Below, one piece after another: positions 1-41,657 of a DNA stretch of 49,150 nucleotides. The DNA is from Nemertoderma westbladi (taxonomy: Eukaryota; Animalia; Xenacoelomorpha), in the NCBI GenBank assembly GCA_032718475.1, contig JAUCBJ010003922.1, forward strand, positions 1 through 49,150, read 5' to 3'. The notes below the pieces were generated by a model. That model was not told the origin of the DNA, did not search any database, and was given only the letters and a program-made list of their open reading frames with translations. The position numbers and the translations under genes were made by a program. Position 1 is the stretch's first letter. Each line of letters opens with the position of its first letter.

Positions 1-1609
1 CAGTTCGACCCTTAAGACCAAGAAGTGACAAGGCTGCCCCATTTTTGCCCTGGGGCAAACCCTATGGAGTGCCCGCCCCACCCACCCCCAGATTGACCTT
101 CCATACATTAATTAAGCCTAAAACAAGTTTTGTACAATAAATAAACTGATTTAAAAAAAATATAGTTATAATTAATATACTTGGTCTCTTCTGGAAGCCA
201 ACACATTTACGTATGTTTGTTTGGTTTGAATTTGAGATGTTGCAGTTGCAATGGTGACTACACACTATTTCGATCGCTACAGTCATATCCCATGTAGGCC
301 TATGTTTATATGCCGCAATTTTCGAACGTGGGTTAACATCTGACAATAGGTGTGTCGGTTCAATGACTACACGAGTGTCGATCTCGGTCATTCACCCTAA
401 ACGAACGAGCAAGGCGATTTTTTTGTGCCAAATTGTATTAAGGACAGGATTATACTCCGAGATTTTTTCTAAGCTCGTTATCCTCCAACCCACCACGCAC
501 AAATCCGTCACCATGTTACACTAGCGCGGTAGGAAGCCTGGCAAATCTACGTTCTACTTTGTGTCCTGTAAATTTAATATCAACCAAGGCTATTACATTG
601 TATGGAATTACCGCATCATACAGAGTAATAGATTGAAAACCAACTAATGGTGAATGAAAACAACGTATAATTACTGCATAATTGCAATTCGCAACGGAAG
701 AGCTCTCTGTTAAAAATTATTAAGCAATTTGCACCTCGTAGTCGCTTCGTAGTCCTCGTTGTAGTCGCCGTGACTCAAACAATTCTGGCAGGTGAACCCA
801 TTTCCCATACCCCTATGCTTTGTTGCCTTTCATTTGGCTATCTATATTCCTTGTGACAGGAAATTCACTTCCCCTGCGGGGATACACGATTAGTCCCGTG
901 TACTGCGGGATTAGGCCATTACGTTCTATACGTTGGGGATGACAGCCACTTTATAAAATAGTTTGGGGACAAGGCAGTTTGCTTGTGCTTCCCTGTTGTG
1001 TGTACCGTGATATTTGTGATACCTACGTGTCTTGGTAACCATCAAGGGGGAATTACACGCGGGGAGATTGTTAATGGCGAACTTGAGTTGGAAATGTCAA
1101 TTTTATTTGCTACATTATTATGTTCAGTTTGTATTGTAGAATGAAACATTTTCTGTGGAGTGGCTCGCAGAAAAAAATAATATTAAGAAAGTATTATATC
1201 ACGTTTAATAAAGTAGCGCTTTATAGAAAACTCGAGTAGGTGTAGGCCTACTCGTGAAACGAATCGTAGCCACTAAAATATATAAATTCTGTTCTACTAG
1301 AATTGTTCTACTTTTCTACCTGACATTTCATCCACAATTGAAATATAATTTAAATTTATATAGAAATGGTAAAGGTAGATAGATTCCCCTTTCCCGTTCT
1401 ACTAAAATCTTTAAAATAGTTTAAGAAATTATTGAGAAGTATGTTTTTTTTAATGATTGAAATACAAATTAATACTAATCTGAAACGAGCTATCCAAACC
1501 AATGATCAAGCTGTGGAATCTAGACACGAAATTAGATCCTAAAAGCGAACATTGATTAAAAAAAGGCAGGGCTAAGGTAGATACAAGTACGCTAAAACAT
1601 TGCATTTCA

Positions 1610-3526
1610 AGTCTTTGCACACCCATAACAATTATGACTAATAACTCTCTGCAGAGTGGTACAGTCCCAGATATTTGGAAAACAGCGCAGGTCTCCCCAT
1701 TACTAAAAAAAGTTAGTCTTGACTCGACTCTGAAGTTTAACTTCCGACCTGTTAGCGGTTTGCCCTTCGTTTCAAAAATTGCAGAAAGAGCGGTGGTGTC
1801 GCAATTTCTCCCCTATATAAACGAACATCATCCCTTGCCAACCAACGAATCTGGATATCGAAAATTTCATAGCACAGAAACAGCACTGATTAAAGTCCAA
1901 TCAGATATTCTTATAAACATGGATAAGAAAAAAGTGACATTTCTAGTACTTCTAGATCTCAGCTCCGCCTTCGACACCGTCGACCACGATCGCCTTCTGC
2001 GTGTGTTCGAATCTGACCTGGGAATTTGCGGCACATGTCTACGGTGGTTCTCATCCTTCCTCCGGGGGCGCCGCCAACACGTAACAACTCTCGGTTCCAA
2101 TTCCAGAGAACACGTATTGGAATACGGCTTCCCCCAGGGTGCATGCTTATCCTGTCACTATTTCAGTAATTTCGGGCGGGGTCTATTTACTATCATTGAG
2201 AACCACTTGCCAATCGCCTTACATGGATATGCTGATGACAAACAAACATACCATGCGTTTCAGCCATCAAGTGAATCCAACGAAACAGATGCATTACAAG
2301 CCCTCCAGAGATGTATTGCAGATATACGTAGGTGGTTTATTGTAAACAAACTTAAAATAAACGATGATAAAACCGAGTTCATAATACTGGGAACACCTCA
2401 ACAACTCTCTAAAGTATCTACACAATACCTAAACGTTGGTAACTTTAAAATACGCCCTGCAAAATTTGTAAAGAACCTCGGCACATGGTTCGATCCAAAT
2501 CTCACCATGGGAAAATTCATATCCAAAACTTGTAATGCCGCGTTCTTCCACATCCATAATATTCGCCGTATCATCAACTTTCTTGACCAAAAGTCCGCTA
2601 AAACAGTTATACATTCACTTATTTCAAGTCGGATTGACTACTGTAACGGCCTCCTCTATGGGGTGTCTAGCTACCAACTAGCAAAATTGCAACGTGTGCA
2701 AAACTCGGCCGCCCGCCTACTAACTAGGGTTCACAAGTATGACCACATTACGCCGAGTCTCAAAGAATTACATTGGCTACCAGTGCGTAAACGCATTGAG
2801 TTTAAATTGCTTCTCCTTGTCCACAAGTCCACCTTAGGTCACGCACCACAGTACATATCTGACATGCTTGTCCGGGTCAATCGCAATAACAACACTACAA
2901 GGAATTGCTCTACACTCACTTTCGTTGAGCCGCGATTCAACTGTCAAACCCTAGGGCGCCGGGCATTCCCAGTAGCCGCCCCACGACTCTGGAACAAACT
3001 CCCAAAAGATATCCGCTCGATTTCCGACACCACAATTTTTAAACAGCGACTCAAAACACATCTTTTTGAAATTGCATATAATTAAACTCCAAAACATGAA
3101 CTCTCTAATTATTTTATTCCAACTCTAGATATTCAATCAACTCTCCAAAAACTGTAAACTTCTTTTAATTTGTTCTTCATGCGTTTTTTAGTGTTTCTGT
3201 TCATTTTATTACCCCATCGCTCGTTTTTATTGTTTCAGTACGTCCGTCAACTACACTTTTTAACTATGCTAATTAATTTTTTTATTACATATTTTTTACT
3301 GTACGTTTCATTTACGGCGAGTATATTTATCAATTTGTACTGTATGTTCCACTTTTTAACGATTGTAATAACTTTTAGTCATTTCGAACTGCACGTTTTA
3401 TCGTTAGTGACGACTATAATTTTTTAATTTCTGTACTACTTGCACTGCTAGTTTTAATGTTATATTGCTTGTGACGTAAGCGCCTTAGCATACTTCTATT
3501 GTTGTAAATTCGGCGCTATACAAATG

Positions 3527-3746: not shown

Positions 3747-5864
3747 TACACCAAAACACGTTCTCACACACGGATAAACTATTTTATGTGTTTTCACACA
3801 CGTATAAACTATTTTAGGTGTTCTCAAACACGTATACACTAATTTAGGTATTCTTACGCATTTATGCACTATTTTAGGTGTTCTTACACACGTATACACC
3901 ATTTTAGTTGTTCTTACACACGTATACCATATTTGGTGTGTTTTCACACGTGTATAAACTATTTTAGGTGTCTTACATATGTATACACTATTTTAAGTGT
4001 TCTTACACATGTATACACAATTTTAGTTGTTCTTACACACGTATACCATATTTGGTGTGTTCTCACACACGTATACACTTTTTTAGTTGTTCTTACACAC
4101 GTTAACCATATTCGGTGTGTTCTCACACACGTTTACACTATTTTAGCTGTACTCACTCACGTATACCATATTTGGCGTGTTCTCACACACGTGTACACTA
4201 TTTTAGGTGTTCTTACACACGTATACCTTATTTGGTGTGTTCTCACACACGTTTACACTATTTTAGCTGTACTCTCTCACGTATACCATATTTGGTGTGT
4301 TCTCACACACGTTTACACTATTTTAGCTGTTCTCACACACGTATACACTATTTTAGATGACTTACACATGTATACACAATTTTAGGTGTTCTTACACACG
4401 TATATACCATTTTAGTTGTTCTTACACACGTATACCATATTTGATGTGTTCTCACACACGTGTACACTATTTTAGGTGTTCTTACACACGTATACCATAT
4501 TTGGTGTGTTCTCACACACGTTTACACTATTTTAGCTGTTCTCACACACTTATACACTATTTCAGATGTCTTACACACGTATACACTATTTTTGGTGTTC
4601 GTACACACGTATATACCATTATAGTTATTCTTACACACATATACCATATTTTAGGAGTTCTCACACACGTTTACACTATTTTAGCTGTACTCACACACGT
4701 ATACCATATTTGGTGTGTTCTCACACACGTTTACATTATTTTAGCTGTTCTCACACACGTATACACTATTTTAGATGTCTTACACATGTATACACTATTT
4801 TAGGTGTTCGTACACACGTATATACCATTATAGTTATTCTTACACACATATACCATATCTTAGGAGTTCTCACACACGTTTACACTATTTTAGCTGTCCT
4901 CACACACTTATACACTATTTTAGATGTCTTCACATGTATAATATTTTATGTGTTCTCACCAACGTATACACCATTTTATGTGTTCTCACACACGCATAAG
5001 CTATTTTAGGTGTTCTCAAACACTTATACACTATTTTAGGTATTCTTACGCATTTGTGCACTATTTTAGATGTTCTTACACATGTTTACACCATTTTAGT
5101 TGTTCTTAAACACGTATACCATATTTGATGTGTTCTCACACACGTGTACACTATTTTAGGTGTTCTTACACACGTATACACTATTTTAGGTGTTCTTACA
5201 CACGTATACACAATTTTAGGTGTTCTTACACACGTATACCATATTTTATGTGTTCTCACACACGATACACTATTATAGGTTTACTTACACACGTATACAC
5301 TATTTTAGGTGTTCTTACACACGTATGCCATATGTGGTGTGTTCTCACACACGTATATACTATTTTAGGTGTTCTCACATACGTATATACTATTTTAGGT
5401 GTTCTCACACACGTATACCATATTTTTGGTGTTCTTACACACGTATACCATATTTTATGTGTTCTCACACACGTATACACTATTTTAGGTTTTCTTACAC
5501 ACGTATACACTAGTTTAGGTGTTCTTACACACGTATACCATATGTGGTGTGTTCTCACACACGTATATACTATTTTAGGTGTTCTCACACACGTATACGC
5601 AATGTTAGGTGTTCTTACACACGTATACCATATTTTATGTGTTCTCACACACGTATACACTATTTTAGGTTTTCTTACACACGTATACACTATTTTAGGT
5701 GTTCTCACACACGTATACCATATGTGGTGTGTTCTCACACACGTATATAATATTTTAGGTGTTTTCACACACGTATATACTATTTTAGGTGTTCTCACAC
5801 ACGTATACCATATTTTAGGTGTTCTCACACACGTATACCATATTTCAGGTGTCCTCACACACGT
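3747..5864 (+). repeat. 30-bp minisatellite (~70 units) derived from the Epac acceptor site plus exon start
   Basis: Unit TATTTTAG|GTGTTCTCACACACGTATACAC/CA. The last unit is the real acceptor TATTTCAG|GTGTCCTCACACACGT. Period is exactly 30 bp from about 5290 to 5864 and more degenerate upstream. Confidence 0.95.
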
Positions 5865-6006
5865 TTCCAAAGAGTTTGAATTTCGGGACGATTATCTGTT
5901 TTACCGCTTCCGGGAGGATGACCAAGGTTTGGGAAGTATACCGGGGGGTTTGGAAAGAAAAGATGCAGAAGATTCACTAGAGGATACGTTGCAGATACTC
6001 AGTCAG
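5849..6006 (+). CDS. RAPGEF4: Epac exon (end of DEP domain)
   Basis: tttcag|GT...CAG|gtaagg; encodes (G)VLTHVSKEFEFRDDYLFYRFREDD...LEDTLQILSQ; 158 nt, phase 1 to 0. Confidence 0.9.
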
Positions 6007-9000
6007 GTAAGGGATAGATTAAAGATACTGTACTTAATTATAGATACTCAGTCAGGTAAGGGATACATTAAAGATAATGTACTTAATTATAGATACTCAG
6101 TCAGGTAAGGGATACATTAAAGATACTGTACTTAATTATAGATACTCAGTCAGGTAAGGGATACATTAAAGATACTGTACTTAATTATAGATACTCAGTC
6201 AGGTAAGGGATACATTAAAGATACTGTACTTTATTATAGATACTCAGTCAGGTAAGGGATACATTAAAGATAATGTACTTAATTATAGATACTCAGTCAG
6301 GTAAGGGATACATTAAAGATAATGTACTTAATTATAGATACTCAGTCAGGTAAGGGATACATTATAGATACTGTACTTAATTATAGATACTCAGTCAGGT
6401 AAGGGATACATTAAAGATACTGTACTTAATTATAGATACTCAGTCAGGTAAGGGATACATTAAAGATACTGTACTTAATTATAGATACTCAGTCAGGTAA
6501 GAGATACATTAAAGATAATGTACTTAATTATAGATACTCAGTCAGGTAAGGGATACATTAAAGATACTGTACTTAATTATAGATAATCAGTCAGGTAAGG
6601 GATACATTAAAGATACTGTACTTAATTATAGATACTCAGTCAGGTAAGAGATACATTAAAGATAATGTACTTAATTATAGATACTCAGTCAGGTAAGGGA
6701 TACATTAAAGATACTGTACTTAATTATAGATAATCAGTCAGGTAAGGGATACATTAAAGATACTGTACTTAATTATAGATACTCAGTCAGGTAAGAGATA
6801 CATTAAAGATAATGTACTTAATTATAGATACTCAGTCAGGTAAGGGATACATTAAAGATACTGTACTTAATTATAGATACTCAGTCAGGTAAGGGATACA
6901 TTAAAGATACTGTACTTAATTATAGATACTCAGTCAGGTAAGGGATACATTAAAGATACTGTACTTAATTATAGATACTCAGTCAGGTAAGGGATACATT
7001 AAAGATACTGTACTTAATTATAGATACTCAGTCAGGTAAGGGATACATTAAAGATACTGTACTTTATTATAGATACTCAGTCAGGTAAGAGATAGATTAA
7101 AGATACTGTACTAAATTATAGATACTCAGTCAGGTAAGAGATAGATTAAAGATACTGTACTTAATTATATATACTCAGTCAGGTAAGAGATAGATTAAAG
7201 ATACTGTACTTAATTATAGATACTCAGTCAGGTAAGAGATACATTAAAGATACTGTACTTAATTATAGATACTCAGTCAGGTAAGGGATACATTAAAGAT
7301 AATGTACTTAATTATAGATACTCAGTCAGGTAAGAGATACATTAAAGATACTGTACTTAATTATAGATACTCAGTCAGGTAAGAGATACATTAAAGATAC
7401 TGTACTTAATTATAGATACTCAGTCAGGTAAGAGATACATTAAAGATACTGTACTTAATTATAGATACTCAGTCAGGTAAGAGATACATTAAAGATACTG
7501 TACTTAATTATAGATACTCAGTCAGGTAAGAGATACATTAAAGATACTGTACTTAATTATAGATACTCAGTCAGGTAAGAGATACATTAAAGATACTGTA
7601 CTTAATTATAGATACTCAGTCAGGTAAGAGATACATTAAAGATACTGTACTTAATTATAGATACTCAGTCAGGTAAGAGATACATTAAAGATACTGTACT
7701 TAATTATAGATACTCAGTCAGGTAAGAGATACATTAAAGATACTGGACTTAATTATAGATACTCAGTCAGGTAAGAGATACATTAAAGATAGTGTACTTA
7801 ATTATAGATACTCAGTCAGGTAAGGGATACATTAAAGATACTGTACTTAATTATAGATACTCAGTCAGGTAAGAGATAGATTAAAGATACTGTACTTAAT
7901 TATAGATACTCAGTCAGGTAAGAGATAGATTAAAGATACTGTACTTAATTATAGATACTCAGTCAGGTAAGAGATACATTAAAGATACTGTACTTAATTA
8001 TAGATACTCAGTCAGGTAAGAGATACATTAAAGATACTGTACTTAATTATAGATACTCAGTCAGGTAAGAGATACATTAAAGATACTGGTACTTAATTAT
8101 AGATACTCAGTCAGGTAAGAGATACATTAAAGATACTGTACTTAATTATAGATACTCAGTCAGGTAAGAGATAGATTAAAGATACTGGTACTTAATTATA
8201 GATACTCAGTCAGGTAAGGGATACATTAAAGATAATGTACTTAATTATAGATACTCAGTCAGGTAAGGGATACATTAAAGATACTGTACTTAATTATAGA
8301 TACTCAGTCAGGTAAGGGATACATTAAAGATAATGTACTTAATTATAGATACTCAGTCAGGTAAGGGATACATTAAAGATACTGTACTTAATTATAGATA
8401 CTCAGTCAGGTAAGGGATACATTAAAGATACTGTACTTAATTATAGATACTCAGTCAGGTAAGGGATACATTAAAGATAGCCTACTGTACTTAATTATAG
8501 ATACTCAGTCAGGTAAGGGATACATTAAAGATAATGTACTTAATTATAGATACTCAGTCAGGTAAGGGATACATTAAAGATACTGTACTTTATTATAGAT
8601 ACTCAGTCAGGTAAGGGATACATTAAAGATACTGTACTTAATTATAGATACTCGCAGTCAGGTAAGAGATAGATTAAAGATACTGTACTTAATTATAGAT
8701 ACTCAGTCAGGTAAGAGATAGATTAAAGATACTGTACTTAATTATAGATACTCAGTCAGGTAAGGGATACATTATAGATACTGTACTTAATTATAGATAC
8801 TCAGTCAGGTAAGGGATACATTAAAGATAATGTACTTAATTATAGATACTCAGTCAGGTAAGGGATACATTAAAGATACTGTACTTAATTATAGATACTC
8901 AGTCAGGTAAGGGATACATTAAAGATACTGTACTTAATTATAGATACTCAGTCAGGTAAGGGATACATTAAAGATACTGTACTTAATTATAGATACTCAG

Positions 9001-12000
9001 TCAGGTAAGGGATACATTAAAGATACTGTACTTAATTATAGATACTCAGTCAGGTAAGGGATACATTAAAGATACTGTACTTAATTATAGATACTCAGTC
9101 AGGTAAGGGATACATTAAAGATACTGTACTTAATTATAGATACTCAGTCAGGTAAGGGATACATTAAAGATACTGTACTTAATTATAGATACTCAGTCAG
9201 GTAAGGGATACATTAAAGATACTGTACTTAATTATAGATACTCAGTCAGGTAAGGGATACATTAAAGATACTGTACTTAATTATAGATACTCAGTCAGGT
9301 AAGGGATACATTAAAGATACTGTACTTAATTATAGATACTCAGTCAGGTAAGGGATACATTAAAGATACTGTACTTAATTATAGATACTCAGTCAGGTAA
9401 GGGATACATTAAAGATACTGTACTTAATTATAGATACTCAGTCAGGTAAGGGATACATTAAAGATACTGTACTTAATTATAGATACTCAGTCAGGTAAGG
9501 GATACATTAAAGATACTGTACTTAATTATAGATACTCAGTCAGGTAAGGGATACATTAAAGATACTGTACTTAATTATAGATACTCAGTCAGGTAAGGGA
9601 TACATTAAAGATACTGTACTTAATTATAGATACTCAGTCAGGTAAGGGATACATTAAAGATACTGTACTTAATTATAGATACTCAGTCAGGTAAGGGATA
9701 CATTAAAGATACTGTACTTAATTATAGATACTCAGTCAGGTAAGGGATACATTAAAGATACTGTACTTAATTATAGATACTCAGTCAGGTAAGGGATACA
9801 TTAAAGATACTGTACTTAATTATAGATACTCAGTCAGGTAAGGGATACATTAAAGATACTGTACTTAATTATAGATACTCAGTCAGGTAAGGGATACATT
9901 AAAGATACTGTACTTAATTATAGATACTCAGTCAGGTAAGGGATACATTAAAGATACTGTACTTAATTATAGATACTCAGTCAGGTAAGGGATACATTAA
10001 AGATACTGTACTTAATTATAGATACTCAGTCAGGTAAGGGATACATTAAAGATACTGTACTTAATTATAGATACTCAGTCAGGTAAGGGATACATTAAAG
10101 ATACTGTACTTAATTATAGATACTCAGTCAGGTAAGGGATACATTAAAGATACTGTACTTAATTATAGATACTCAGTCAGGTAAGGGATACATTAAAGAT
10201 ACTGTACTTAATTATAGATACTCAGTCAGGTAAGGGATACATTAAAGATACTGTACTTAATTATAGATACTCAGTCAGGTAAGGGATACATTAAAGATAC
10301 TGTACTTAATTATAGATACTCAGTCAGGTAAGGGATACATTAAAGATACTGTACTTAATTATAGATACTCAGTCAGGTAAGGGATACATTAAAGATACTG
10401 TACTTAATTATAGATACTCAGTCAGGTAAGGGATACATTAAAGATACTGTACTTAATTATAGATACTCAGTCAGGTAAGGGATACATTAAAGATACTGTA
10501 CTTAATTATAGATACTCAGTCAGGTAAGGGATACATTAAAGATACTGTACTTAATTATAGATACTCAGTCAGGTAAGGGATACATTAAAGATACTGTACT
10601 TAATTATAGATACTCAGTCAGGTAAGGGATACATTAAAGATACTGTACTTAATTATAGATACTCAGTCAGGTAAGGGATACATTAAAGATACTGTACTTA
10701 ATTATAGATACTCAGTCAGGTAAGGGATACATTAAAGATACTGTACTTAATTATAGATACTCAGTCAGGTAAGGGATACATTAAAGATACTGTACTTAAT
10801 TATAGATACTCAGTCAGGTAAGGGATACATTAAAGATACTGTACTTAATTATAGATACTCAGTCAGGTAAGGGATACATTAAAGATACTGTACTTAATTA
10901 TAGATACTCAGTCAGGTAAGGGATACATTAAAGATACTGTACTTAATTATAGATACTCAGTCAGGTAAGGGATACATTAAAGATACTGTACTTAATTATA
11001 GATACTCAGTCAGGTAAGGGATACATTAAAGATACTGTACTTAATTATAGATACTCAGTCAGGTAAGGGATACATTAAAGATACTGTACTTAATTATAGA
11101 TACTCAGTCAGGTAAGGGATACATTAAAGATACTGTACTTAATTATAGATACTCAGTCAGGTAAGGGATACATTAAAGATACTGTACTTAATTATAGATA
11201 CTCAGTCAGGTAAGGGATACATTAAAGATACTGTACTTAATTATAGATACTCAGTCAGGTAAGGGATACATTAAAGATACTGTACTTAATTATAGATACT
11301 CAGTCAGGTAAGGGATACATTAAAGATACTGTACTTAATTATAGATACTCAGTCAGGTAAGGGATACATTAAAGATACTGTACTTAATTATAGATACTCA
11401 GTCAGGTAAGGGATACATTAAAGATACTGTACTTAATTATAGATACTCAGTCAGGTAAGGGATACATTAAAGATACTGTACTTAATTATAGATACTCAGT
11501 CAGGTAAGGGATACATTAAAGATACTGTACTTAATTATAGATACTCAGTCAGGTAAGGGATACATTAAAGATACTGTACTTAATTATAGATACTCAGTCA
11601 GGTAAGGGATACATTAAAGATACTGTACTTAATTATAGATACTCAGTCAGGTAAGGGATACATTAAAGATACTGTACTTAATTATAGATACTCAGTCAGG
11701 TAAGGGATACATTAAAGATACTGTACTTAATTATAGATACTCAGTCAGGTAAGGGATACATTAAAGATACTGTACTTAATTATAGATACTCAGTCAGGTA
11801 AGGGATACATTAAAGATACTGTACTTAATTATAGATACTCAGTCAGGTAAGGGATACATTAAAGATAGCCTCTGTACTTAATTATAGATACTCAGTCAGG
11901 TAAGGGATACATTAAAGATACTGTACTTAATTATAGATACTCAGTCAGGTAAGGGATACATTAAAGATACTGTACTTAATTATAGATACTCAGTCAGGTA

Positions 12001-15000
12001 AGGGATACATTAAAGATACTGTACTTAATTATAGATACTCAGTCAGGTAAGGGATACATTAAAGATACTGTACTTAATTATAGATACTCAGTCAGGTAAG
12101 GGATACATTAAAGATACTGTACTTAATTATAGATACTCAGTCAGGTAAGGGATACATTAAAGATACTGTACTTAATTATAGATACTCAGTCAGGTAAGGG
12201 ATACATTAAAGATACTGTACTTAATTATAGATACTCAGTCAGGTAAGGGATACATTAAAGATACTGTACTTAATTATAGATACTCAGTCAGGTAAGGGAT
12301 ACATTAAAGATACTGTACTTAATTATAGATACTCAGTCAGGTAAGGGATACATTAAAGATACTGTACTTAATTATAGATACTCAGTCAGGTAAGGGATAC
12401 ATTAAAGATACTGTACTTAATTATAGATACTCAGTCAGGTAAGGGATACATTAAAGATACTGTACTTAATTATAGATACTCAGTCAGGTAAGGGATACAT
12501 TAAAGATACTGTACTTAATTATAGATACTCAGTCAGGTAAGGGATACATTAAAGATACTGTACTTAATTATAGATACTCAGTCAGGTAAGGGATACATTA
12601 AAGATACTGTACTTAATTATAGATACTCAGTCAGGTAAGGGATACATTAAAGATACTGTACTTAATTATAGATACTCAGTCAGGTAAGGGATACATTAAA
12701 GATACTGTACTTAATTATAGATACTCAGTCAGGTAAGGGATACATTAAAGATACTGTACTTAATTATAGATACTCAGTCAGGTAAGGGATACATTAAAGA
12801 TACTGTACTTAATTATAGATACTCAGTCAGGTAAGGGATACATTAAAGATACTGTACTTAATTATAGATACTCAGTCAGGTAAGGGATACATTAAAGATA
12901 CTGTACTTAATTATAGATACTCAGTCAGGTAAGGGATACATTAAAGATACTGTACTTAATTATAGATACTCAGTCAGGTAAGGGATACATTAAAGATACT
13001 GTACTTAATTATAGATACTCAGTCAGGTAAGGGATACATTAAAGATACTGTACTTAATTATAGATACTCAGTCAGGTAAGGGATACATTAAAGATACTGT
13101 ACTTAATTATAGATACTCAGTCAGGTAAGGGATACATTAAAGATACTGTACTTAATTATAGATACTCAGTCAGGTAAGGGATACATTAAAGATACTGTAC
13201 TTAATTATAGATACTCAGTCAGGTAAGGGATACATTAAAGATACTGTACTTAATTATAGATACTCAGTCAGGTAAGGGATACATTAAAGATACTGTACTT
13301 AATTATAGATACTCAGTCAGGTAAGGGATACATTAAAGATACTGTACTTAATTATAGATACTCAGTCAGGTAAGGGATACATTAAAGATACTGTACTTAA
13401 TTATAGATACTCAGTCAGGTAAGGGATACATTAAAGATACTGTACTTAATTATAGATACTCAGTCAGGTAAGGGATACATTAAAGATACTGTACTTAATT
13501 ATAGATACTCAGTCAGGTAAGGGATACATTAAAGATACTGTACTTAATTATAGATACTCAGTCAGGTAAGGGATACATTAAAGATACTGTACTTAATTAT
13601 AGATACTCAGTCAGGTAAGGGATACATTAAAGATACTGTACTTAATTATAGATACTCAGTCAGGTAAGGGATACATTAAAGATACTGTACTTAATTATAG
13701 ATACTCAGTCAGGTAAGGGATACATTAAAGATACTGTACTTAATTATAGATACTCAGTCAGGTAAGGGATACATTAAAGATACTGTACTTAATTATAGAT
13801 ACTCAGTCAGGTAAGGGATACATTAAAGATACTGTACTTAATTATAGATACTCAGTCAGGTAAGGGATACATTAAAGATACTGTACTTAATTATAGATAC
13901 TCAGTCAGGTAAGGGATACATTAAAGATACTGTACTTAATTATAGATACTCAGTCAGGTAAGGGATACATTACAGATACTGTACTTAATTATAGATACTC
14001 AGTCAGGTAAGGGATACATTACAGATACTGTACTTAATTATAGATACTCAGTCAGGTAAGGGATACATTACAGATACTGTACTTAATTATAGATACTCAG
14101 TCAGGTAAGAGATACATTAAAGATAGCCTACTGTACTTAATTATAGATACTCAGTCAGGTAAGGGATACATTACAGATACTGTACTTAATTATAGATACT
14201 CAGTCAGGTAAGGGATACATTAAAGATACTGTACTTAATTATAGATACTCAGTCAGGTAAGGGATACATTAAAGATACTGTACTTAATTATAGATACTCA
14301 GTCAGGTAAGGGATACATTAAAGATACTGTACTTAATTATAGATACTCAGTCAGGTAAGGGATACATTAAAGATACTGTACTTAATTATAGATACTCAGT
14401 CAGGTAAGGGATACATTACAGATACTGTACTTAATTATAGATACTCAGTCAGGTAAGGGATACATTACAGATACTGTACTTAATTATAGATACTCAGTCA
14501 GGTAAGGGATACATTAAAGATACTGTACTTAATTATAGATACTCAGTCAGGTAAGGGATACATTAAAGATAGCCTACTGTACTTAATTATAGATACTCAG
14601 TCAGGTAAGGGATACATTAAAGATACTGTACTTAATTATAGATACTCAGTCAGGTAAGAGATACATTAAAGATACTGTACTTAATTATAGATACTCAGTC
14701 AGGTAAGGGATACATTAAAGATACTGTACTTAATTATAGATACTCAGTCAGGTAAGAGATACATTAAAGATACTGTACTTAATTATAGATACTCAGTCAG
14801 GTAAGGGATACATTAAAGATACTGTACTTAATTATAGATACTCAGTCAGGTAAGGGATACATTAAAGATAGCCTACTGTACTTAATTATAGATACTCAGT
14901 CAGGTAAGGGATACATTAAAGATACTGTACTTAATTATAGATACTCAGTCAGGTAAGAGATACATTAAAGATAATGTACTTAATTATAGATACTCAGTCA

Positions 15001-18000
15001 GGTAAGGGATACATTAAAGATACTGTACTTAATTATAGATACTCAGTCAGGTAAGAGATACATTAAAGATACTGTACTTAATTATAGATACTCAGTCAGG
15101 TAAGGGATACATTAAAGATACTGTACTTAATTATATATACTCAGTCAGGTAAGGGATACATTAAAGATAGCCTACTGTACTTAATTATAGATACTCAGTC
15201 AGGTAAGGGATACATTAAAGATACTGTACTTAATTATAGATACTCAGTCAGGTAAGAGATACATTAAAGATACTGTACTTAATTATAGATACTCAGTCAG
15301 GTAAGGGATACATTAAAGATACTGTACTTAATTATAGATACTCAGTCAGGTAAGGGATACATTAAAGATACTGTACTTAATTATAGATACTCAGTCAGGT
15401 AAGGGATACATTAAAGATACTGTACTTAATTATAGATACTCAGTCAGGTAAGGGATACATTAAAGATACTGTACTTAATTATAGGTACTCAGTCAGGTAA
15501 GGGAAACATTAAAGATACTGTACTTAATTATAGATACTCAGTCAGGTAAGGGATACATTAAAGATACTGTACTTAATTATAGATACTCAGTCAGGTAAGG
15601 GATACATTAAAGATACTGTACTTAATTATAGATACTCAGTCAGGTAAGGGATACTTTAAAGATACTGTACTTAATTATAGATATTCAGTCAGGTAAGGGA
15701 TACATTAAAGATACTGGTACTTAATTATAGATACTCAGTCAGGTAAGGGATACATTAAAGATACTGTACTTAATTATAGATACTCAGTCAGGTAAGGGAT
15801 ACATTAAAGATACTGTACTTAATTATACATACTCAGTCAGGTAAGGGATACATTAAAGATACTGTACTTAATTATAGATACTCAGTCAGGTAAGGGATAC
15901 TTTAAAGATACTGTACTTAATTATAGATACTCAGTCAGGTAAGGGATACATTAAAGATACTGTACTTAATTATAGATACTCAGTCAGGTAAGGGATACAT
16001 TAAAGATACTGTACTTAATTATAGATACTCAGTCAGGTAAGGGATACATTAAAGATACTGTACTTAATTATAGATACTCAGTCAGGTAAGGGATACTTTA
16101 AAGATACTGTACTTAATTATAGATATTCAGTCAGGTAAGGGATACATTAAAGATACTGGTACTTAATTATAGATACTCAGTCAGGTAAGAGATAGATTAA
16201 AGATACTGTACTTAATTATAGATACTCAGTGAGGTAAGGGATACATTAAAGATACTGTACTTAATTATAGATACTCAGTCAGGTAAGGGATACATTAAAG
16301 ATACTGTACTTAATTATAGATACTCAGTCAGGTAAGGGATACATTAAAGATACTGTACTTAATTATAGATACTCAGTCAGGTAAGGGATACTTTAAAGAT
16401 ACTGTACTTAATTATAGATATTCAGTCAGGTAAGGGATACATTAAAGATACTGGTACTTAATTATAGATACTCAGTCAGGTAATAGATAGATTAAAGATA
16501 CTGTACTTAATTATAGATACTCAGTGAGGTAAGGGATACATTAAAGATACTGTACTTAATTATAGATACTCAGTCAGGTAAGGGATACATTAAAGATAGC
16601 CTGCTGTACTTAATTATAGATACTCAGTCAGGTAAGGGATACATTAAAGATACTGTACTTAATTATAGATACTCAGTCAGGTAAGGATACATTAAAGATA
16701 CTGTACTTAATTATAGATACTCAGTCAGGTAAGGGATACATTAAAGATACTGTACTTAATTATAGATACTCAGTCAGGTAAGGGATACTTTAAAGATACT
16801 GTACTTAATTATAGATATTCAGTCAGGTAAGGGATACATTAAAGATACTGGTACTTAATTATAGATACTCAGTCAGGTAAGAGATACATTAAAGATACTG
16901 TACTTAATTATAGATACTCAGTGAGGTAAGGGATACATTAAAGATACTGTACTTAATTATAGATACTCAGTCAGGTAAGGGATACATTAAAGATTCTGTA
17001 CTTAATTATAGATACTCAGTCAGGTAAGAGATACATTAAAGATTCTGTACTTAATTATAGATACTCAGTCAGGTAAGAGATACATTAAAGATACTGTACT
17101 TAATTATAGATACTCAGTCAGGTAAGAGATACATTAAAGATACTGTACTTAATTATAGATACTCAGTCAGGTAAGGGATACATTAAAGATTCTGTACTTA
17201 ATTATAGATACTCAGTCAGGTAAGGGATACATTAAAGATTCTGTACTTAATTATAGATACTCAGTCAGGTAAGAGATACATTAAAGATACTGTACTTAAT
17301 TATAGATACTCAGTCAGGTAAGAGATACATTAAAGATACTGTACTTAATTATAGATACTCAGTCAGGTAAGGGATACATTAAAGATACTGTACTTAATTA
17401 TAGATACTCAGTCAGGTAAGAGATACATTAAAGATACTGTACTTAATTATAGATACTCAGTCAGGTAAGAGATAGATTAAAGATACTGTACTTAATTATA
17501 GATACTCAGTCAGGTAAGGGATACATTAAAGATAGCCTGCTGTACTTAATTATAGATACTCAGTCAGGTAAGGGATACATTAAAGATACTGTACTTAATT
17601 ATAGATACTCAGTCAGGTAAGGGATACATTAAAGATACTGTACTTAATTATAAATACTCAGTCAGGTAAGGGATACATTAAAGATAGCCTGCTGTACTTA
17701 ATTATAGATACTCAGTCAGGTAAGGGATACATTAAAGATACTGTACTTAATTATAGATACTCAGTCAGGTAAGGGATACATTAAAGATACTGTACTTAAT
17801 TATAGATACTCAGTCAGGTAAGGGATAGATTAAAGATACTGTACTTAATTATAGATACTCAGTCAGGTAAGAGATAGATTAAAGATAATGTACTTAATTA
17901 TAGATACTCAGTCAGGTAAGGGATACATTAAAGATACTGTACTTAATTATAGATACTCAGTCAGGTAAGGGATACATTAAAGATACTGTACTTAATTATA

Positions 18001-19740
18001 GATACTCAGTCAGGTAAGGGATACATTAAAGATAGCCTGCTGTACTTAATTATAGATACTCAGTCAGGTAAGGGATACATTAAAGATACTGTACTTAATT
18101 ATAGATACTCAGTCAGGTAAGGGATACATTAAAGATACTGTACTTAATTATAGATACTCAGTCAGGTAAGGGATACATTAAAGATACTGTACTTAATTAT
18201 AGATACTCAGTCAGGTAAGAGATACATTAAAGATACTGTACTTAATTATAGATACTCAGTCAGGTAAGGGATACATTAAAGATACTGTACTTAATTATAG
18301 ATACTCAGTCAGGTAAGGGATACATTAAAGATACTGTACTTAATTATAGATACTCAGTCAGGTAAGGGATACATTAAAGACTGTACTTAATTATAGATAC
18401 TCAGTCAGGTAAGGGATACATTAAAGATTCTGTACTTAATTATAGATACTCAGTCAGGTAAGGGATACATTAAAGATAATGTACTTAATTATAGATACTC
18501 AGTCAGGTAAGGGATACATTAAAGATACTGTACTTAATTATAGATACTCAGTCAGGTAAGGGATACATTAAAGATTCTGTACTTAATTATAGATACTCAG
18601 TCAGGTAAGAGATACATTAAAGATACTGTACTTAATTATAGATACTCAGTCAGGTAAGGGATACATTAAAGATACTGTACTTAATTATAGATACTCAGTC
18701 AGGTAAGAGATACATTAAAGATACTGTACTTAATTATAGATACTCAGTCAGGTAAGGGATACATTAAAGATACTGTACTTAATTATAGATACTCAGTCAG
18801 GTAAGAGATAGATTAAAGATACTGTACTTAATTATAGATACTCAGTCAGGTAAGAGATACATTAAAGATACTGTACTTAATTATAGATACCCAGTCAGGT
18901 AAGGGATACATTAAAGATACTGTACTTAATTATAGATACTCAGTCAGGTAAGGGATACATTAAAGATACTGTACTTAATTATAGATACTCAGTCAGGTAA
19001 GGGATACATTAAAGACTGTACTTAATTATAGATACTCAGTCAGGTAAGGGATACATTAAAGATTCTGTACTTAATTATAGATACTCAGTCAGGTAAGGGA
19101 TACATTAAAGATAATGTACTTAATTATAGATACTCAGTCAGGTAAGGGATACATTAAAGATACTGTACTTAATTATAGATACTCAGTCAGGTAAGGGATA
19201 CATTAAAGATTCTGTACTTAATTATAGATACTCAGTCAGGTAAGAGATACATTAAAGATACTGTACTTAATTATAGATACTCAGTCAGGTAAGGGATACA
19301 TTAAAGATACTGTACTTAATTATAGATACTCAGTCAGGTAAGAGATACATTAAAGATACTGTACTTAATTATAGATACTCAGTCAGGTAAGGGATACATT
19401 AAAGATACTGTACTTAATTATAGATACTCAGTCAGGTAAGAGATACATTAAAGATACTGTACTTAATTATAGATACTCAGTCAGGTAAGGGATACATTAA
19501 AGATACTGTACTTAATTATAGATACTCAGTCAGGTAAGGGATACATTAAAGATAGCCTACTGTACTTAATTATAGATACTCAGTCAGGTAAGGGATACAT
19601 TAAAGATACTGTACTTAATTATAGATACTCAGTCAGGTAAGGGATACATTAAAGATACTGTACTTAATTATAGATACTCAGTCAGGTAAGGGATACATTA
19701 AAGATACTGTATTTAATTATAGATTCTCAGTCGGGTAAGG
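5993..19740 (+). repeat. 49-bp minisatellite (~280 units, ~13.7 kb) derived from Epac exon end plus donor site
   Basis: Unit ATACTCAGTCAG|GTAAGGGATACATTAAAGATACTGTACTTAATTATAG. The first unit overlaps the last 12-14 nt of the exon. The core at about 8870-13960 is near-invariant. Confidence 0.97.
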
Positions 19741-20105: not shown

Positions 20106-20712
20106 TCGTGTTGGCGAAGAGGCCACACGAACATGTTGCGAATAAAAGTTTATTGAATTAATTGTTGTTTTATTGTAACTTGCTGTGATTAACTAAAGGA
20201 GACAGGGGGGGGGGGGAATGGTCGCAAATCCGATCTTGGCGAATTAATATCGCCTCAATGTTAAATTCTCAATTTAGGGAAAGGAGCAGGTTACATTGGC
20301 ACGTTATTTGAATAATAAACTAAATACAATAGAACAGGTTACAGTTTTATTTTTGAGAGTAATCATCTGTTATTTGCGTCCAATTTCCCCCGGAGAGGGA
20401 TTAATTTTTATTGCGTCCAGTCCCCCCCCCCCCCCCCCCCCCCTCCCATCTGGACTAAAGTTTAAGTTATTCCTTGGCCACCCACTGTTGTACTTCTTTC
20501 ATTATTATGTTATATACAGTACATATGTCTATGTGCTGTTTTTTTAAGTATTTTGTGCTAATAACTGTAAGCTGATCTGCAACCGGTAATATTCTGTATT
20601 CATTGATACTGTTAACGCGAACAACAATGGCTCTAATTGACGTGTCGAAATAAAACACAAACCTGAAATATTCCATGCTTTAGCATATTATTTATATTTT
20701 CGTGGTTCTTAG

Positions 20713-20947
20713 ATTGGGCCAGATGCCATTCTTCGGGTAAACCTTCGTAAAAGCCCTACCGACCGGTCTCCAGACGATCTGGAGATAATATATGATGAGT
20801 TAGTTCATATTAAAGCGCTAAGTCATCTATCCACCATGGTGAAGCGGCAGTTGGCCTCTGTTATTATTCTAGAATTCCATGAAAATGCAGGAACAGTGCT
20901 GTTCCATCAAGGGGAGGAAGGCCGTAGCTGGTATATCATACTGAAAG
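20713..20947 (+). CDS. RAPGEF4: Epac exon (start of cNMP-binding domain)
   Basis: ttcttag|ATT...AAAG|gtaagt; [50 protein letters not shown]...[16 protein letters not shown]; 235 nt, phase 0 to 1. Not in the ORF track. Confidence 0.93.
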
Positions 20948-21050
20948 GTAAGTGAGAAAAAGTTAATCAACCGTTGTTAATTAACGCCTTCTCTTTACGC
21001 ACCTACTGTAGTACCAGAAACCTGCAAACTTTCGGTATTTATCTACGCAG

Positions 21051-21249
21051 GTTCTGTAAATGTTATGATACGGGGGAAGGGCACCGTCTGCACATTGCAT
21101 GAAGGTGACGATTTCGGTAAACTTGCCTTGGTTAACGACGCACCCAGGGCCGCCTCTATCGTAATGAGGGAGGACTATTGCCACTTCCTTCGCGTCGATA
21201 AGGACGACTTCAACCGAATACTTCGCGATGTCGAAGCTAATACTGTGAG
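21051..21249 (+). CDS. RAPGEF4: Epac exon (cNMP-binding domain, phosphate-binding cassette)
   Basis: tacgcag|GT...GTGAG|gtaatt; [66 protein letters not shown](R); 199 nt, phase 1 to 2. Confidence 0.95.
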
Positions 21250-21424
21250 GTAATTATAAATTTACCCGCCTTTTACGTTATGGCCGTTCTTTACTTATTA
21301 CAGTAATTAGTTCGATTATATCAATGGCCAATTCAATTATGGTATATATTATTTTTCTTTCCAGATATATTCTTTATTTTCCAACAGTTAACTACTACTA
21401 CTACTACTACTCCCTACTACTGAA

Positions 21425-21689: not shown

Positions 21690-23000
21690 TGTGGTTGATT
21701 TTGTTCTACGCATCTCCTTAGACCATCTTAATAAAGATGGGTTGATGGTAACACCCCCTACTGGCACAAGAATTAGAGGAAATCCAGCAAAGTACCTTAC
21801 TGATCTAGACTTTGCTGATGACAATGGCGGGTACTGTCAGAATCACGAGAGGGAGCCAAAAGGCTCCTCTGCTCATTAGAGCAAGTTGCTTCTAGTGTTG
21901 GTCTTTTTGTAAATTCCAAGAAGACCAAAATCATGACAGTCAACCTAGACAGCCCTCAATAAATAGCTGATCGTAAGATCATATGCTCTAAGGATAGCTT
22001 GCTTGAGCACGTGGAGATGGATGACTTCTGCTACTTGGGATCATTAAAATACTTTCAGGTATACTCCGGGGGTGGAGAATCTGTTGGGGGTGTAGAGGGT
22101 CTTGCCACGAGTTATAAAAATATAAATGTTACCGTATGCGCATTTCACCCGTTGCGGGCGTCCTCAGCGGTTCATTATTATAATATTATATACATTAAAA
22201 TAGGAACATATCAATTTAAATAAAATGGTAGGACTACAGGTCTGCAGGTTATTGGGTGGGGTAGCAGTCTGCAAGCGGGCGGGCTGCCTGCGGCTGTTAG
22301 GTCGCTACCGGTATCAAGGATGCGGGCTGACGAGCTGATGCGGACAAGGGGGCTAAGGGCTAACTCGTGGCAAGACCCTATACACCCCCAACAGATTCTC
22401 CACCCTCGGAGTATACCTGAAAGTATTTTAATCATGCTTACGCCACGCTTGACGTCAACCAGAAACATTAAATATTTGGACTTGGGATCATGGATCAGAA
22501 AGTCAGGTGAAGGAAGTCCATAAGGAAGGCATGGGCAGCTTTAAATAGTCTGTCCAGGATTTGGAAGTCCCATAGAATAAAGTGGTACCTTAAGGTTCGA
22601 TTATTTATGGCAGCAGTAGTACCAGTACTCTTATGGGAGTCCATGCTGGGCTCTAACTGCAGCGGATACCAAATCTCTGGATGGCACATTCACAAGAATG
22701 CTACGCCGGGTTCATTGTGTCAAGTACAATAAACACATATCCAATCAGACTCTATACAACATTGGAGGTGTTCCATTACTCTCCCCTAGCTTGAAACTTG
22801 AATGGAACCTGGGAACCGCCCCCGCTTTGCAGGACATTGCTTTCGCCGTGAGGACCAGCCAGTGCATAATATGTTGTGCTTTGGCGCCCTCATGGAGCGA
22901 ATAAGAATGGTAAACCGCCAATGACTTTCTTAAGACGCATCTTAAAGGACGCTGTCCTTGAAGATGCGGATGATCTAGCAAATGTCATGGGCAATTACTT
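21690..23000 (+). pseudogene. Decayed RTE-like LINE RT fragment, interrupted by a MITE
   Basis: Frameshifted remnants: LTDLDFADD, VGLFVNSKKTKIM, DDFCYLGS / LGSWI, AWAALNSLSRIWKS, LDGTFTRMLRRV, RFAGHCFRREDQP. Confidence 0.75.
22043..22432. mobile_element. MITE-like element with 72-bp inverted repeats
   Basis: 22043-22114 is the reverse complement of 22361-22432 with 2 mismatches. A 12-bp direct repeat ACTTGGGATCAT at 22033-22044 and 22480-22491 brackets the whole insertion. Confidence 0.8.
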
Positions 23001-23355: not shown

Positions 23356-25695
23356 ATGACGAGTATTGAGGTTGAACCAATTTTTATTTGCGGTGGATGC
23401 AATCCAGGTTGTCACTCACTTTCCTGGGGACCCAATGGTGTTATCGCTTACGCTAGTTGCCACTCGGTGTACATTGTTCTGCGAGAGGGGAAAGAAAACA
23501 TACTGTCTGTAACATCGACAAATAATCGCCACAACGCTGCAGTTCGTTCCCTACGTTGGTCCCAATACGACAGCACTGATAACGCAGCCAATTGTTATCT
23601 GATTTCTGGAGCGAATGACGGCGAGGTGATCTTATGGAACCCGTCGAAGTGCGTTCGTCTACTGGACCTCCAATACCGATTTAAGGCTCATGAGGACGCC
23701 GTAATATCTGTAGATACGGTGTGGCGAGACGGTGGCGTTTTACTTTTAGCTTCCAGTGGCGCAGATAACAAAGTTAATTTATGGTCAATCAGTATTGAGG
23801 ATGGAAGATGTGTGGCATCTCTGTCAGACTCAGTAGATTTCGAAAGATCTTTTGTTCTTGATTTAGCCTTCCATAGTTGGTCGCTTAGCACCGATGTTGT
23901 ATTGGCTTGCGCTTCTTGTGACTCATCGATACGTCTATTTACTATAAACCGAGAAAGTATATTGAAAAGTGCAATCAAACTAGTTGGTCACGCAGATTGG
24001 GTGCGAGCGTTGAGCTTTAGCGCAGCGGGTAGTTCCACGGAGACACTCCTAGCTAGCGGTTCCAACGACGGGTTTGTTCGATTGTGGAGGTTTTCTTTAG
24101 CGCGAGTCGACGCGTTTACATCGAGTAACAAACTAAGGATTACCAGCAATAGATTCGCCGTTACCGCAGATACGGAGACTGTTTGGGTGACGGTTTGTTC
24201 CGAGGCTGTCCTCAGTGGTCACGACGCCACTGTGTACGGCGTCGCGTGGCAACCAAACAGCGAGGTGCTGTTGACAACGTCGGCGGATAAAACGTTGATT
24301 ATTTGGAGTCGTCAGGGCGGTTTAGAGCATTCCGTGTGGGAGGAGCAGAGCCGTGTGGGCGCTGTGGGCCCGGCCTCGTTCGCCCTGTATGGGGCGGTAT
24401 GGGAGCCCAATGGGGCGGCGGTGCTCGCCCACAGTTACAGGGGCGCCTTCCATCTGTGGGAGCGGAACGGTGGGGGTTGGGTCGCCGGTGTTGCACCACT
24501 GGGGCATGGCGCACCGGTCACCGGACTGGTCTGGGAACCGGGGGCGGGCCGCTACCTCCTCTCTGTATCGCAGGACCAGACCGCCCGGGTTTACTGCGAG
24601 TGGAGGCGAGCGGAGGGAGCCGTTAGCTCGTGGCACGAGGTCGCTCGTCCGCAGGTCCACGGACACGATATTGAGTGTGTCGCCGCTCTCAGCTCGCACG
24701 CGTTCGCAACCGGTGCAGAAGAGAAAGTCATCCGACTGTTCGCAGCCCCTCGTTCCTTTACTCGCAACCTATTCAATCTATCCGGTATCTGTTTACCTGC
24801 GTTGTCTGGGCAACCCCTAGGCGCCGCGGTCCCTCCGCTCGGGCTCTCTAATAAAGCGGTCGATCAAGAGAACTTAGACTCGGACGATATTGGCGCCTTC
24901 GTAGACTTTCAACTGTGTTCCCCTCCCACCGAGGAACACTTGGTTCAGAACACTCTGTGGCCCGAGACGCACAAACTTTACGGTCACGGTTACGAGTTGT
25001 ACAGTCTGGCTGCCAGTCCGGACGGCTCTGTGGTGGCGTCCTCGTGCAAGGCGAGCAGCGGAGAGCATGCGACAGTGCGGTTGTGGGACGCTGCGACGGG
25101 ACGACCCGTCGCCACGCTCCCGGGACATTCGCTCACAGTCACCGCGCTGCGCTTCAGTCACTCCGGCGATCAGATACTTTCAGTTTCGAGGGACCGCACG
25201 TGGTGTCTCTATCGGAGTGAGTCGCGCACAGACTGGAGGCTGGTCTACCGGTCCCCCGCCGGTAAGGCTGGTCTCCACTCTCGTGTCATCTGGTCTTGTT
25301 CCTGGTCCCATGACGATTCGTTATTCGTAACGGCGTCTCGCGATAAGAAACTCGTGGTTTGGTATCGCGGAAGCGACGTGGCGGATTCTGATTGGTCGGG
25401 CAGCCCATTGATCCTCCCATCTCCAGTCACGGCGGTTGATTTCGCACCTCGCTTCTCCAAGAGTGGCTCGTATCTCGTTGCATCGGGGTTGGAATCTGGT
25501 TCTATCTGTCTCCACACGTGGTCTATGGACTCAGGTTGGACTGAAAAACTTCGACTAGATACCTCTATAGCTCATTGCCTGAGCGTTACGTCGTTGCTAT
25601 GGAAACCTATAGACTTGAATTCATTGTCAGATAACTTATTACTAGCTAGTTCTTCCACTGATTGCGCAGTTAAGATTTACAAGGTTATGTTGTAA
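23356..25695 (+). CDS. ELP2: Elongator complex protein 2 (WD40 repeat), intronless, nested in an Epac intron
   Basis: 779-aa intact ORF with ELP2 signatures: LVGHADWVRAL, YLLSVSQDQTAR, WHEVARPQVHGHD, GAEEKVIRLF, LGLSNKAV, PPTEEHLVQNTLWPETHKLYGHGYELY, HSLTVTALRFS, HSRVIWSCSW, TASRDKK. Confidence 0.93.
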   Translation: MTSIEVEPIFICGGCNPGCHSLSWGPNGVIAYASCHSVYIVLREGKENILSVTSTNNRHNAAVRSLRWSQYDSTDNAANCYLISGANDGEVILWNPSKCVRLLDLQYRFKAHEDAVISVDTVWRDGGVLLLASSGADNKVNLWSISIEDGRCVASLSDSVDFERSFVLDLAFHSWSLSTDVVLACASCDSSIRLFTINRESILKSAIKLVGHADWVRALSFSAAGSSTETLLASGSNDGFVRLWRFSLARVDAFTSSNKLRITSNRFAVTADTETVWVTVCSEAVLSGHDATVYGVAWQPNSEVLLTTSADKTLIIWSRQGGLEHSVWEEQSRVGAVGPASFALYGAVWEPNGAAVLAHSYRGAFHLWERNGGGWVAGVAPLGHGAPVTGLVWEPGAGRYLLSVSQDQTARVYCEWRRAEGAVSSWHEVARPQVHGHDIECVAALSSHAFATGAEEKVIRLFAAPRSFTRNLFNLSGICLPALSGQPLGAAVPPLGLSNKAVDQENLDSDDIGAFVDFQLCSPPTEEHLVQNTLWPETHKLYGHGYELYSLAASPDGSVVASSCKASSGEHATVRLWDAATGRPVATLPGHSLTVTALRFSHSGDQILSVSRDRTWCLYRSESRTDWRLVYRSPAGKAGLHSRVIWSCSWSHDDSLFVTASRDKKLVVWYRGSDVADSDWSGSPLILPSPVTAVDFAPRFSKSGSYLVASGLESGSICLHTWSMDSGWTEKLRLDTSIAHCLSVTSLLWKPIDLNSLSDNLLLASSSTDCAVKIYKVML

Positions 25696-26750: not shown

Positions 26751-26891
26751 ATATTCAGTTATGGCGGGAACGCCGGAGAAAATGCTGGAATATCTTATGG
26801 AAACCAGAATAGATGAGAAACAAACTGGCCATAAAGACACCTTCCTTAGCGACTTTCTGCTAACTCATCCTGTGTTCCTAACTACATCTCG
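26751..26891 (+). CDS. RAPGEF4: Epac exon (REM domain start)
   Basis: ttttttag|A...TCTCG|gtaagt; (R)YSVMAGTPEKMLEYLMETRIDEKQTGHKDTFLSDFLLTHPVFLTTS(R); 141 nt, phase 2 to 2. Confidence 0.92.
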
Positions 26892-33144: not shown

Positions 33145-33301
33145 AATGATGGAAACACAAATCAATGGACTGAAAAACTGGCCATTCAACCGAAACACGC
33201 AACTCGGTAAGAAGAAAGCGAATATGTCGGGAATAATGAGAGGCACCGAGGATTATTCAGGTCGTCTACCAATCCAACATAACGACGAATTCGTGTTTAA
33301 G
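33145..33301 (+). CDS. RAPGEF4: Epac exon (REM-RA linker)
   Basis: cctgcag|A...TTTAAG|gttagc; (R)MMETQINGLKNW...RLPIQHNDEFVFK (cf. Epac2 RQPIRGSDEVLFK); 157 nt, phase 2 to 0. Confidence 0.85.
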
Positions 33302-41433: not shown

Positions 41434-41657
41434 GTACACTGCTCGGATATGCGGTACACCACGCTAAGAGTTAGCATAGACAGCACCGCAGGACAAATAG
41501 CTGAGTTAGCTGCGTCCAAATTAGGCTTGGGCCACCACGACCTAATTCTGGTGGAAGTCCGTAGCAGTGGGGATTACGTTCTCTTCGATCCGATGGATCT
41601 CAGTATCCCTACCAGTCTAAGTTGCAACGGAAGACTTTTCGTTACAGTCGCCGCAAA
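41434..41657 (+). CDS. RAPGEF4: Epac exon (Ras-association domain)
   Basis: tttccag|GTA...GCAAA|gtacgt; VHCSDMRYTTLRVSIDSTAGQIAELAASKLG...SIPTSLSCNGRLFVTVAA(K); 224 nt, phase 0 to 2. Confidence 0.92.

Follow-up and report, generated by a model that had tools for sequence, protein, structure and literature searches.

How is one acceptor chosen among dozens of near-identical copies of itself, and is it the only one in use? The question is raised by a stretch of 49,150 nt from Nemertoderma westbladi (GenBank assembly GCA_032718475.1, contig JAUCBJ010003922.1, positions 1 to 49,150 of the forward strand; hereafter the window), in which an exon encoding the end of a DEP domain is preceded by a long minisatellite of 30-nt units, many of them ending like an acceptor. 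A first-pass annotation of this DNA had suggested that upstream acceptors in the array could insert residues into the DEP domain in steps of ten, and that the cell must either discriminate on a C/T difference and exon definition or make a ladder of isoforms. The analysis described here indicates that the array is probably a splice-junction minisatellite of the kind called a mirage, derived from the intron-end/exon-start junction of the DEP exon, and that its decoy acceptors are likely bystanders that are mostly skipped.

The host gene

The window contains 11 exons of an Epac-like (RAPGEF3/4-like) gene on the plus strand (Table 1). Joined at splice sites read from the sequence, these exons give a stop-free coding sequence of 2092 nt. 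The Pfam matches and the alignment with Epac2 show the domain order DEP, cNMP-binding, RasGEF_N, RA and RasGEF, which is that of Epac / RAPGEF3-4 proteins. The N-terminal part of the DEP domain lies beyond the window.

The focal exon is bounded by the acceptor TTTCAG/GT and the donor CAG/GTAAGG (the slash marks the junction), has a unique core at 5865-5992 and is in frame with the 10 downstream exons. Its translation from 5851 to 6006 aligns with residues 258-309 of Epac2, the last strands of the DEP domain and the linker, over all 52 residues and with no insertion (E 5e-8). The acceptor had previously been placed at 5849; this is the first base of the exon, whereas the AG itself occupies 5847-5848. 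At +3, each of the gene's 11 real donors carries A or T, never G; the donors are loose from +3 to +6 (e.g. GTTCGT, GTATCT and GTTGGT).

Table 1. Exons and junction arrays of the Epac-like gene (window coordinates)
Feature	Position	Strand	Description
Acceptor-junction minisatellite	3758-5864	+	70 units of ~30 nt, then 16 nt of exon start that are still repeat
Focal exon	5849-6006	+	158 nt; codon phase 1 at start, phase 0 at end; encodes DEP end and linker
Donor-junction minisatellite of the focal exon	5993-19740	+	49-nt unit, 279 copies, 97% matches
cNMP_binding exons	20713-20947 and 21051-21249	+	Pfam E 2e-4 and 2e-9 (matches 20713-20952, 21050-21250)
RasGEF_N (REM) exon	26751-26891	+	Pfam E 9e-7 (match 26758-26892); aligned with Epac2 488-531
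Donor-junction minisatellite of the REM exon	26872-32237	+	173 copies of a 24-nt unit that joins the last 20 exon nt to GTAA
Exon whose last 9 nt, GTGTTTAAG, open the 44-nt array	33145-33301	+	Open frame and splice sites
Donor-junction minisatellite of exon 33145-33301	33293-41042	+	44-nt unit, GTGTTTAAG/GTTAGC onward, 169 copies, 88% matches
RA exon	41434-41657	+	Weak Pfam RA, E 4e-3, under the curated cut-off (match 41434-41658)
RasGEF catalytic exons	43070-43319, 44295-44524, 48587-48760	+	Pfam RasGEF E 9e-8, 4e-24, 1e-11

Structure of the acceptor array

Tandem Repeats Finder reports the array at 3760-5864 with a period of 30, 70.5 copies, 79% matches and a score of 2414. Segmentation backwards from the real AG divides 3758-5848 into 70 units, 64 of 30 nt, five of 29 nt and one of 26 nt. 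Each unit consists of 16 nt resembling the exon start, GTGTTCTCACACACGT, followed by 14 nt resembling the intron end, ATACACTATTTTAG. The repeat extends to 5864 and thus takes in 16 nt of the exon start; these match the unit consensus but for one position, a synonymous GTC for GTT. The real acceptor belongs to the last unit (5819-5848), at the exon-side edge of the array.

An AG closes 48 of the 70 units, namely 47 decoys and the real site. Juxtaposed AG/GT is found in 27 units and the longer TTTTAG/GT in 22. The sequence TTTCAG/GT occurs in one unit only, that of the real acceptor; a second TTTCAG ends at 4565 and is followed by AT. The 22 units lacking the AG have endings of eight kinds: TTTTAT and TTTGGT (six each), TGTGGT (three), TTTGAT and TTTTTG (two each), and TTTTAA, TTCGGT and TTTGGC (one each). 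The branch-like motif CT[CT]AC has 63 matches within the array. In 63 of the 64 units of 30 nt, its A occupies unit position 9, with the G of the AG 21 nt further on. The anatomy outlined in the first-pass annotation, with many junction units keeping TTTTAG/GT and CTCAC or CTTAC, TTTCAG/GT confined to the last unit and the AG lost from others, is thereby confirmed.

Longer periods are superimposed on the 30-nt unit. A period of 180 nt runs through 5279-5848 (identity 0.90 at this lag) and one of 209 nt through the middle part, about 4238-4950 (identity 0.89), while the distal part is built of 60-nt dimers. Higher-order blocks of 60, 180 and 209 nt are the expected mark of unequal exchange or replication slippage of multi-unit blocks.

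Three donor arrays in the same gene

The acceptor array had been regarded as a singular feature, but it is actually one of four splice-junction arrays in the same gene. The other three lie at donors, overlap their exons by 14, 20 and 9 nt, and have the real donor in the first unit. In the array of the focal exon, the unit joins 14 nt of exon end to GTAAGG and the next 29 nt of the intron. Over 13.7 kb this array holds 275 copies of CAGGTAAG, with the core donor CAG/GTAAGG, and a reading frame continued past the exon would reach a stop after 33 codons. The array of the REM exon holds 117 copies of CGGTAAG, and read-through stops immediately (CGG TAA, 0 codons). From about 30838 it passes into higher-order variants of 58, 168 and 388 nt. 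Its first donor copy is colinear with Epac2, the exon ending at residue 531 and the next exon, from 32391, starting at residue 534, which identifies this copy as the real donor. The third array holds 165 copies of AAGGTTAG, with a read-through stop after 2 codons.

Two details of the donor units were also observed. Each 49-nt unit has a TTATAG 12 nt before its donor and so resembles a 12-nt pseudo-exon. In the array of the REM exon, GGTAAG is changed to GGTATG in some units from about 30838.

The four junction arrays total 28,969 nt, or 59% of the window. Among the five arrays of at least 500 nt in the window, four end inside an exon edge. The chance of this is about 5e-7 by a rough estimate (22 edges x 20 nt / 49150 per array end); thus, the tie of the arrays to splice junctions is real. 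The sole large array off the exon edges is a 53-nt tandem array at 41972-42549 (10.9 copies, 95% matches), ~300 nt downstream of the RA exon.

The copy numbers of all arrays are those of one assembly and one haplotype, and mis-assembly of repetitive long reads might have inflated the length or copy number of the arrays, or the whole arrangement. The 97% uniformity of the 13.7-kb array is in line with this, as is an aberrantly assembled mirage in the amphioxus draft genome mentioned in a passage of Ebner et al. (PMC3087553). However, the units of the acceptor array have diverged and form structured sub-blocks, a pattern not produced by collapse or expansion artefacts. In addition, unique sequence flanks the arrays, and the colinearity of the gene is kept across the four. 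An artefact is therefore extremely unlikely.

Reading frame and strength of the decoys

A stop-to-stop frame of 332 aa (5110-6108) continues through repeats into the focal exon, as the first-pass annotation had stated for an ORF at 5125-6108. The GVLTHVYTIL repeats, which were said to run straight into the exon, do so from 5279 on; before this point, a 29-nt unit at 5250-5278 shifts the register. The 47 decoy AGs comprise 13 that are in frame with no stop, 10 that are in frame but run into a stop, and 24 that are out of frame. The 13 usable decoys end at 5278, 5308, 5368, 5398, 5488, 5518, 5578, 5608, 5668, 5698, 5758, 5788 and 5818, and their use would add, from the nearest to the farthest, 10, 20, 30, 50, 60, 80, 90, 110, 120, 150, 160, 180 and 190 residues. 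The proposal that an upstream acceptor adds n x 10 aa without nonsense-mediated decay (NMD) thus holds for these 13, whereas the other 34 lead to a frameshift or a stop. In cDNA, a junction with a decoy acceptor would read exon/GTGTTCTC and the authentic junction exon/GTGTCCTC.

The gene's 10 other acceptors were used to derive a crude scoring matrix. By this measure the real site reaches 6.0 bits; values for 12 of the 13 in-frame decoys range from 2.4 to 5.5 bits, just 0.5 to 3.6 bits less, and that of the 13th is -1.6 bits. Of the 52 AGs that precede the real one in the array, a single one attains its score. Between the nearest decoy, ending at 5818, and the real site, the stretch from -30 to +16 differs only at -3 and +5, where the decoy has T and the real site C; some use of this decoy would not be surprising. 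The C/T difference at -3 had been put forward as the feature by which the cell tells the sites apart, a role that these comparisons do not bear out. TAG is found at four of the 10 other real acceptors and is normal in this gene, so the difference would be at best a weak discriminator.

If the upstream in-frame acceptors were appreciably used, the gene would yield Epac proteins with 10 to 190 extra residues (VLTHVYTILG-like) in the last DEP strands. The open frame of the 13 decoys, the small score differences of 12 of them and the service of TAG acceptors at other exons are all compatible with such a ladder, and each of the 13 has its own CTCAC or CTTAC 21 nt upstream. The ladder is thus possible on paper, but several observations make it unlikely. 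Most of the 47 decoys break the frame or run into a stop, and the protein is colinear with Epac2 without an insert. The chance that a 30-nt period is stop-free in one given frame is ~1/3 x (61/64)^10, or about 0.2. Frame preservation is limited to the acceptor array among the four, about the chance level of one array in five, and since the other three arrays all give early stops, it is not a property of the class. Excerpts from the reports on amphioxus mirages also describe splicing that is undisturbed by the repeats (PMC3087553, PMC3902484).

The variation among the units points in the same direction. Units that contribute to a useful protein would be expected to differ mostly at third codon positions, which is not so here. 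Variation across the units is 0.150 at third positions vs. 0.103 at first and 0.105 at second positions (permutation p 0.17), and no codon-position bias was found in the 19 proximal units either (permutation p 0.35). Frame-breaking units of 29 and 26 nt account for six of the 70. A search of longer proteins with four units plus the exon as the query, which is weak evidence, gave 13 candidates and none with E <= 0.001. In the literature on acceptor-array ladders, the passages of PMC12350158 considered proved irrelevant. It is very unlikely, judging from these comparisons, that the array acts as a length-variable isoform generator, with the 13 in-frame stop-free decoys measurably used and the ladders differing with repeat number. 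If it did, a minisatellite would tune the membrane-targeting domain of a cAMP sensor.

Choice of the real acceptor

The last acceptor copy is probably chosen by exon definition, as no other copy stands directly before the unique exon body, and the first strong donor comes 158 nt after this acceptor. The slightly better base at -3 (C) may contribute a little to the choice. On the basis of this arrangement, exon definition is a reasonable and preferred candidate mechanism. A duplication of the junction would be tolerated while the copy contiguous with the unique exon body stays the chosen site, so that the array could grow only into the intron. Such duplications would survive because splicing continues to select the real sites. 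If the nearest in-frame decoys (+30, +60 and +90 nt) were used now and then, this would be splicing noise rather than a programmed ladder. The presumed silence of the decoys is an analogy drawn from other species and genes.

Masking of the decoys by RNA structure was considered as a further candidate and rejected: the fold of 5639-5900 has a z of -0.79, and 46 of 200 shuffles fold equally well.

The juxtaposition of AG and GT in the units raises the possibility of recursive (ratchet) splicing, in which a unit would serve as an acceptor and then as a regenerated donor, so that the array is removed stepwise and the final mRNA is normal. A recursive splice site consists of an acceptor juxtaposed with a strong donor consensus, AG/GTAAGT-like, and the units here read AG/GTGTTC. 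The number of AG/GT units and the looseness of the donors of this gene from +3 to +6 would allow such a process. However, the would-be donor GTGTTC has the G at +3 that is absent from all 11 real donors. The GT moreover stems from the exon's own first codon (G/GT GTC), and the AG/GT pairing needs no special explanation. The real exon start has the same GT and would run an equal risk, and the end of the upstream exon, which would form part of the regenerated site, is outside the window. Recursive removal of the array has, on this evidence, almost no likelihood.

Another possibility is that the decoys are mildly harmful and that purifying selection has shaped the array, with intron-end-like units tolerated mainly after loss of the AG. 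The AG is gone in 17 of the 21 units that have the ACCATAT-type intron part of the real site, whereas it is kept in 44 of the 49 units of the other type. Erosion of the unit peaks at -3, the A, the G and +1 (0.238 non-consensus vs. 0.101 elsewhere; permutation p 0.026, which is indicative only, as the units are related by descent), and the eight different endings of the AG-less units also agree with this reading. However, variants have been amplified in blocks of 60, 180 and 209 nt, so that a few events can explain the counts. A gradient of AG loss towards the exon was looked for across the units and none was found, the AG being kept equally near to and far from the exon (12/18 vs. 35/51), and the three nearest decoys are intact. 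Selection as the shaping force is rather unlikely, though the erosion of the junction suggests that the decoys may not be fully neutral. The reading of the decoys as mostly skipped bystanders of a junction minisatellite is retained below.

Other features of the window

An intronless gene for a WD40 protein of 779 aa, similar to Elongator subunit 2 (ELP2), is nested in an intron of the Epac-like gene on the same strand (23356-25695, plus). Among the 120 matches listed, its identity to named ELP2 proteins (from annelids, cnidarians, molluscs and insects) does not exceed 41%, and none of the 120 is from Branchiostoma. A quick tree of the query and 22 of the 120 matches, hand-picked across phyla, gave the protein a long branch (1.6) and placed it in no group. 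A retrogene origin of the gene is possible, as is descent in a fast-evolving lineage.

Upstream of the acceptor array there is an open frame of 509 aa for a LINE-type reverse transcriptase (1556-3085, plus; Pfam RVT_1 E 6e-23); its best matches have 51% identity and are all unnamed. A later intron contains minus-strand ORFs at 44970-45806 and 47305-48099 (278 and 264 aa). In this minus-strand retroelement region, 12-nt repeats of the (GAGCTTTTTTT)-like type at 46188-46257 and 46951-47076 flank ~700 nt. The inverted repeat 22040-22114 / 22361-22435 has arms of 75 nt with 96% complementarity and 246 nt between them, and looks like a small foldback or MITE-type intron insertion. Homopolymer runs of 31 C at 44867-44897 and of about 25 C at 20421-20446 are present, and no tRNA genes were found in the window.

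Implications for splice-site choice

Taken alone, the acceptor array adds a neat and very large case to a described repeat class and leaves existing knowledge unchanged. The locus as a whole is a natural experiment on splice-site choice, with a 158-nt exon placed between 47 spare acceptors and 275 spare consensus donors. The cell must select the last acceptor and the first donor among hundreds of near-identical sites. Donor arrays have a tested rule, in human F7, that the first copy wins, whereas acceptor arrays are without such a rule. The acceptor array is the more informative case, because 13 of its possible mistakes would be invisible to NMD and readable in cDNA. The locus is also a warning for annotators, as such arrays can derail gene prediction around short exons.

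Comparison with known splice-site repeats

Tandem acceptors of the NAGNAG type are closely spaced sites, 3 nt apart, that can give in-frame insertion or deletion isoforms without NMD. Whereas NAGNAG sites share one branch point and one pyrimidine tract, the decoys here are complete modules 30 nt apart, each with its own branch-like motif.

Tandem duplication of AG/GT-containing sequence is also a proposed route of intron gain, the Rogers model, which is treated in an excerpt of Hellsten et al. 2011 (PMC3265369) and to which Ebner et al. link mirages in a passage of their paper (PMC3087553). The likeness to the model, as far as it is set out in these excerpts, is that a tandem duplication carrying splice signals creates new potential splice sites. 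Unlike in the model, no new intron is evident here and the copies lie inside existing introns.

In intron 7 of human F7, a 37-bp VNTR has its first unit across the exon 7 donor, which is thereby repeated 5 to 9 times, according to the sections of the F7 paper used here (PMC1557585). These sections report, from experiments in mammalian cells, that the pseudo-donors are functional but silent and that the most upstream donor alone is used. They also cite conflicting early results on duplicated acceptors. The identical pseudo-donors after the real one in F7 match the three donor arrays here, in which the first copy is colinear with the protein. As described there, F7 differs in having donors only and few copies, whereas the acceptor array here needs the last copy to be chosen.

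The closest resemblance in structure is to the mirages of amphioxus. The acceptor array is a head-to-tail repeat, its unit spans the junction and carries the splice signal, and the authentic site lies at the exon-side edge, as the structural definition of a mirage has it. By its sequence organization, it is a large example of this class, already described in amphioxus. Passages of Ebner et al. (PMC3087553) describe mirage repeats at an acceptor boundary (BflGb6) and a donor boundary (BflGb9) of amphioxus globin genes and cite an earlier report of mirages in Adh3. They further describe concerted evolution of the copies, length differences between haplotypes and, by RT-PCR, regular splicing that is undisturbed. 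The same is reported for amphioxus PGBD5, with TnC cited, in an excerpt of Pavelitz et al. 2013 (PMC3902484). The parts of the two papers considered agree with the present arrays in the boundary-spanning unit with its splice signal, the occurrence at both acceptor and donor boundaries and the location in the intron next to the authentic site (PMC3087553, PMC3902484). Further likenesses, in the passages on the globin genes, are that many but not all copies keep AG or GT and that copies within a cluster evolve in concert (PMC3087553).

The arrays differ from the amphioxus cases in scale. They have 70, 279, 173 and 169 copies and reach 13.7 kb, whereas 3 to 6 copies are given for BflGb6 in the relevant passage (PMC3087553). 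Unit sizes in amphioxus, as given in the same source, are 10-72 bp in Adh3 and 150-160 bp in the globins, compared with 30, 49, 24 and 44 nt here. The presence of four arrays in one gene, as in the Epac-like gene, is unlike the amphioxus cases. Splicing and length polymorphism were tested in the amphioxus mirages, according to the portions of the reports consulted, whereas the description of the present arrays comes from sequence. The kinship of these arrays with the amphioxus mirages is of kind, not of lineage.
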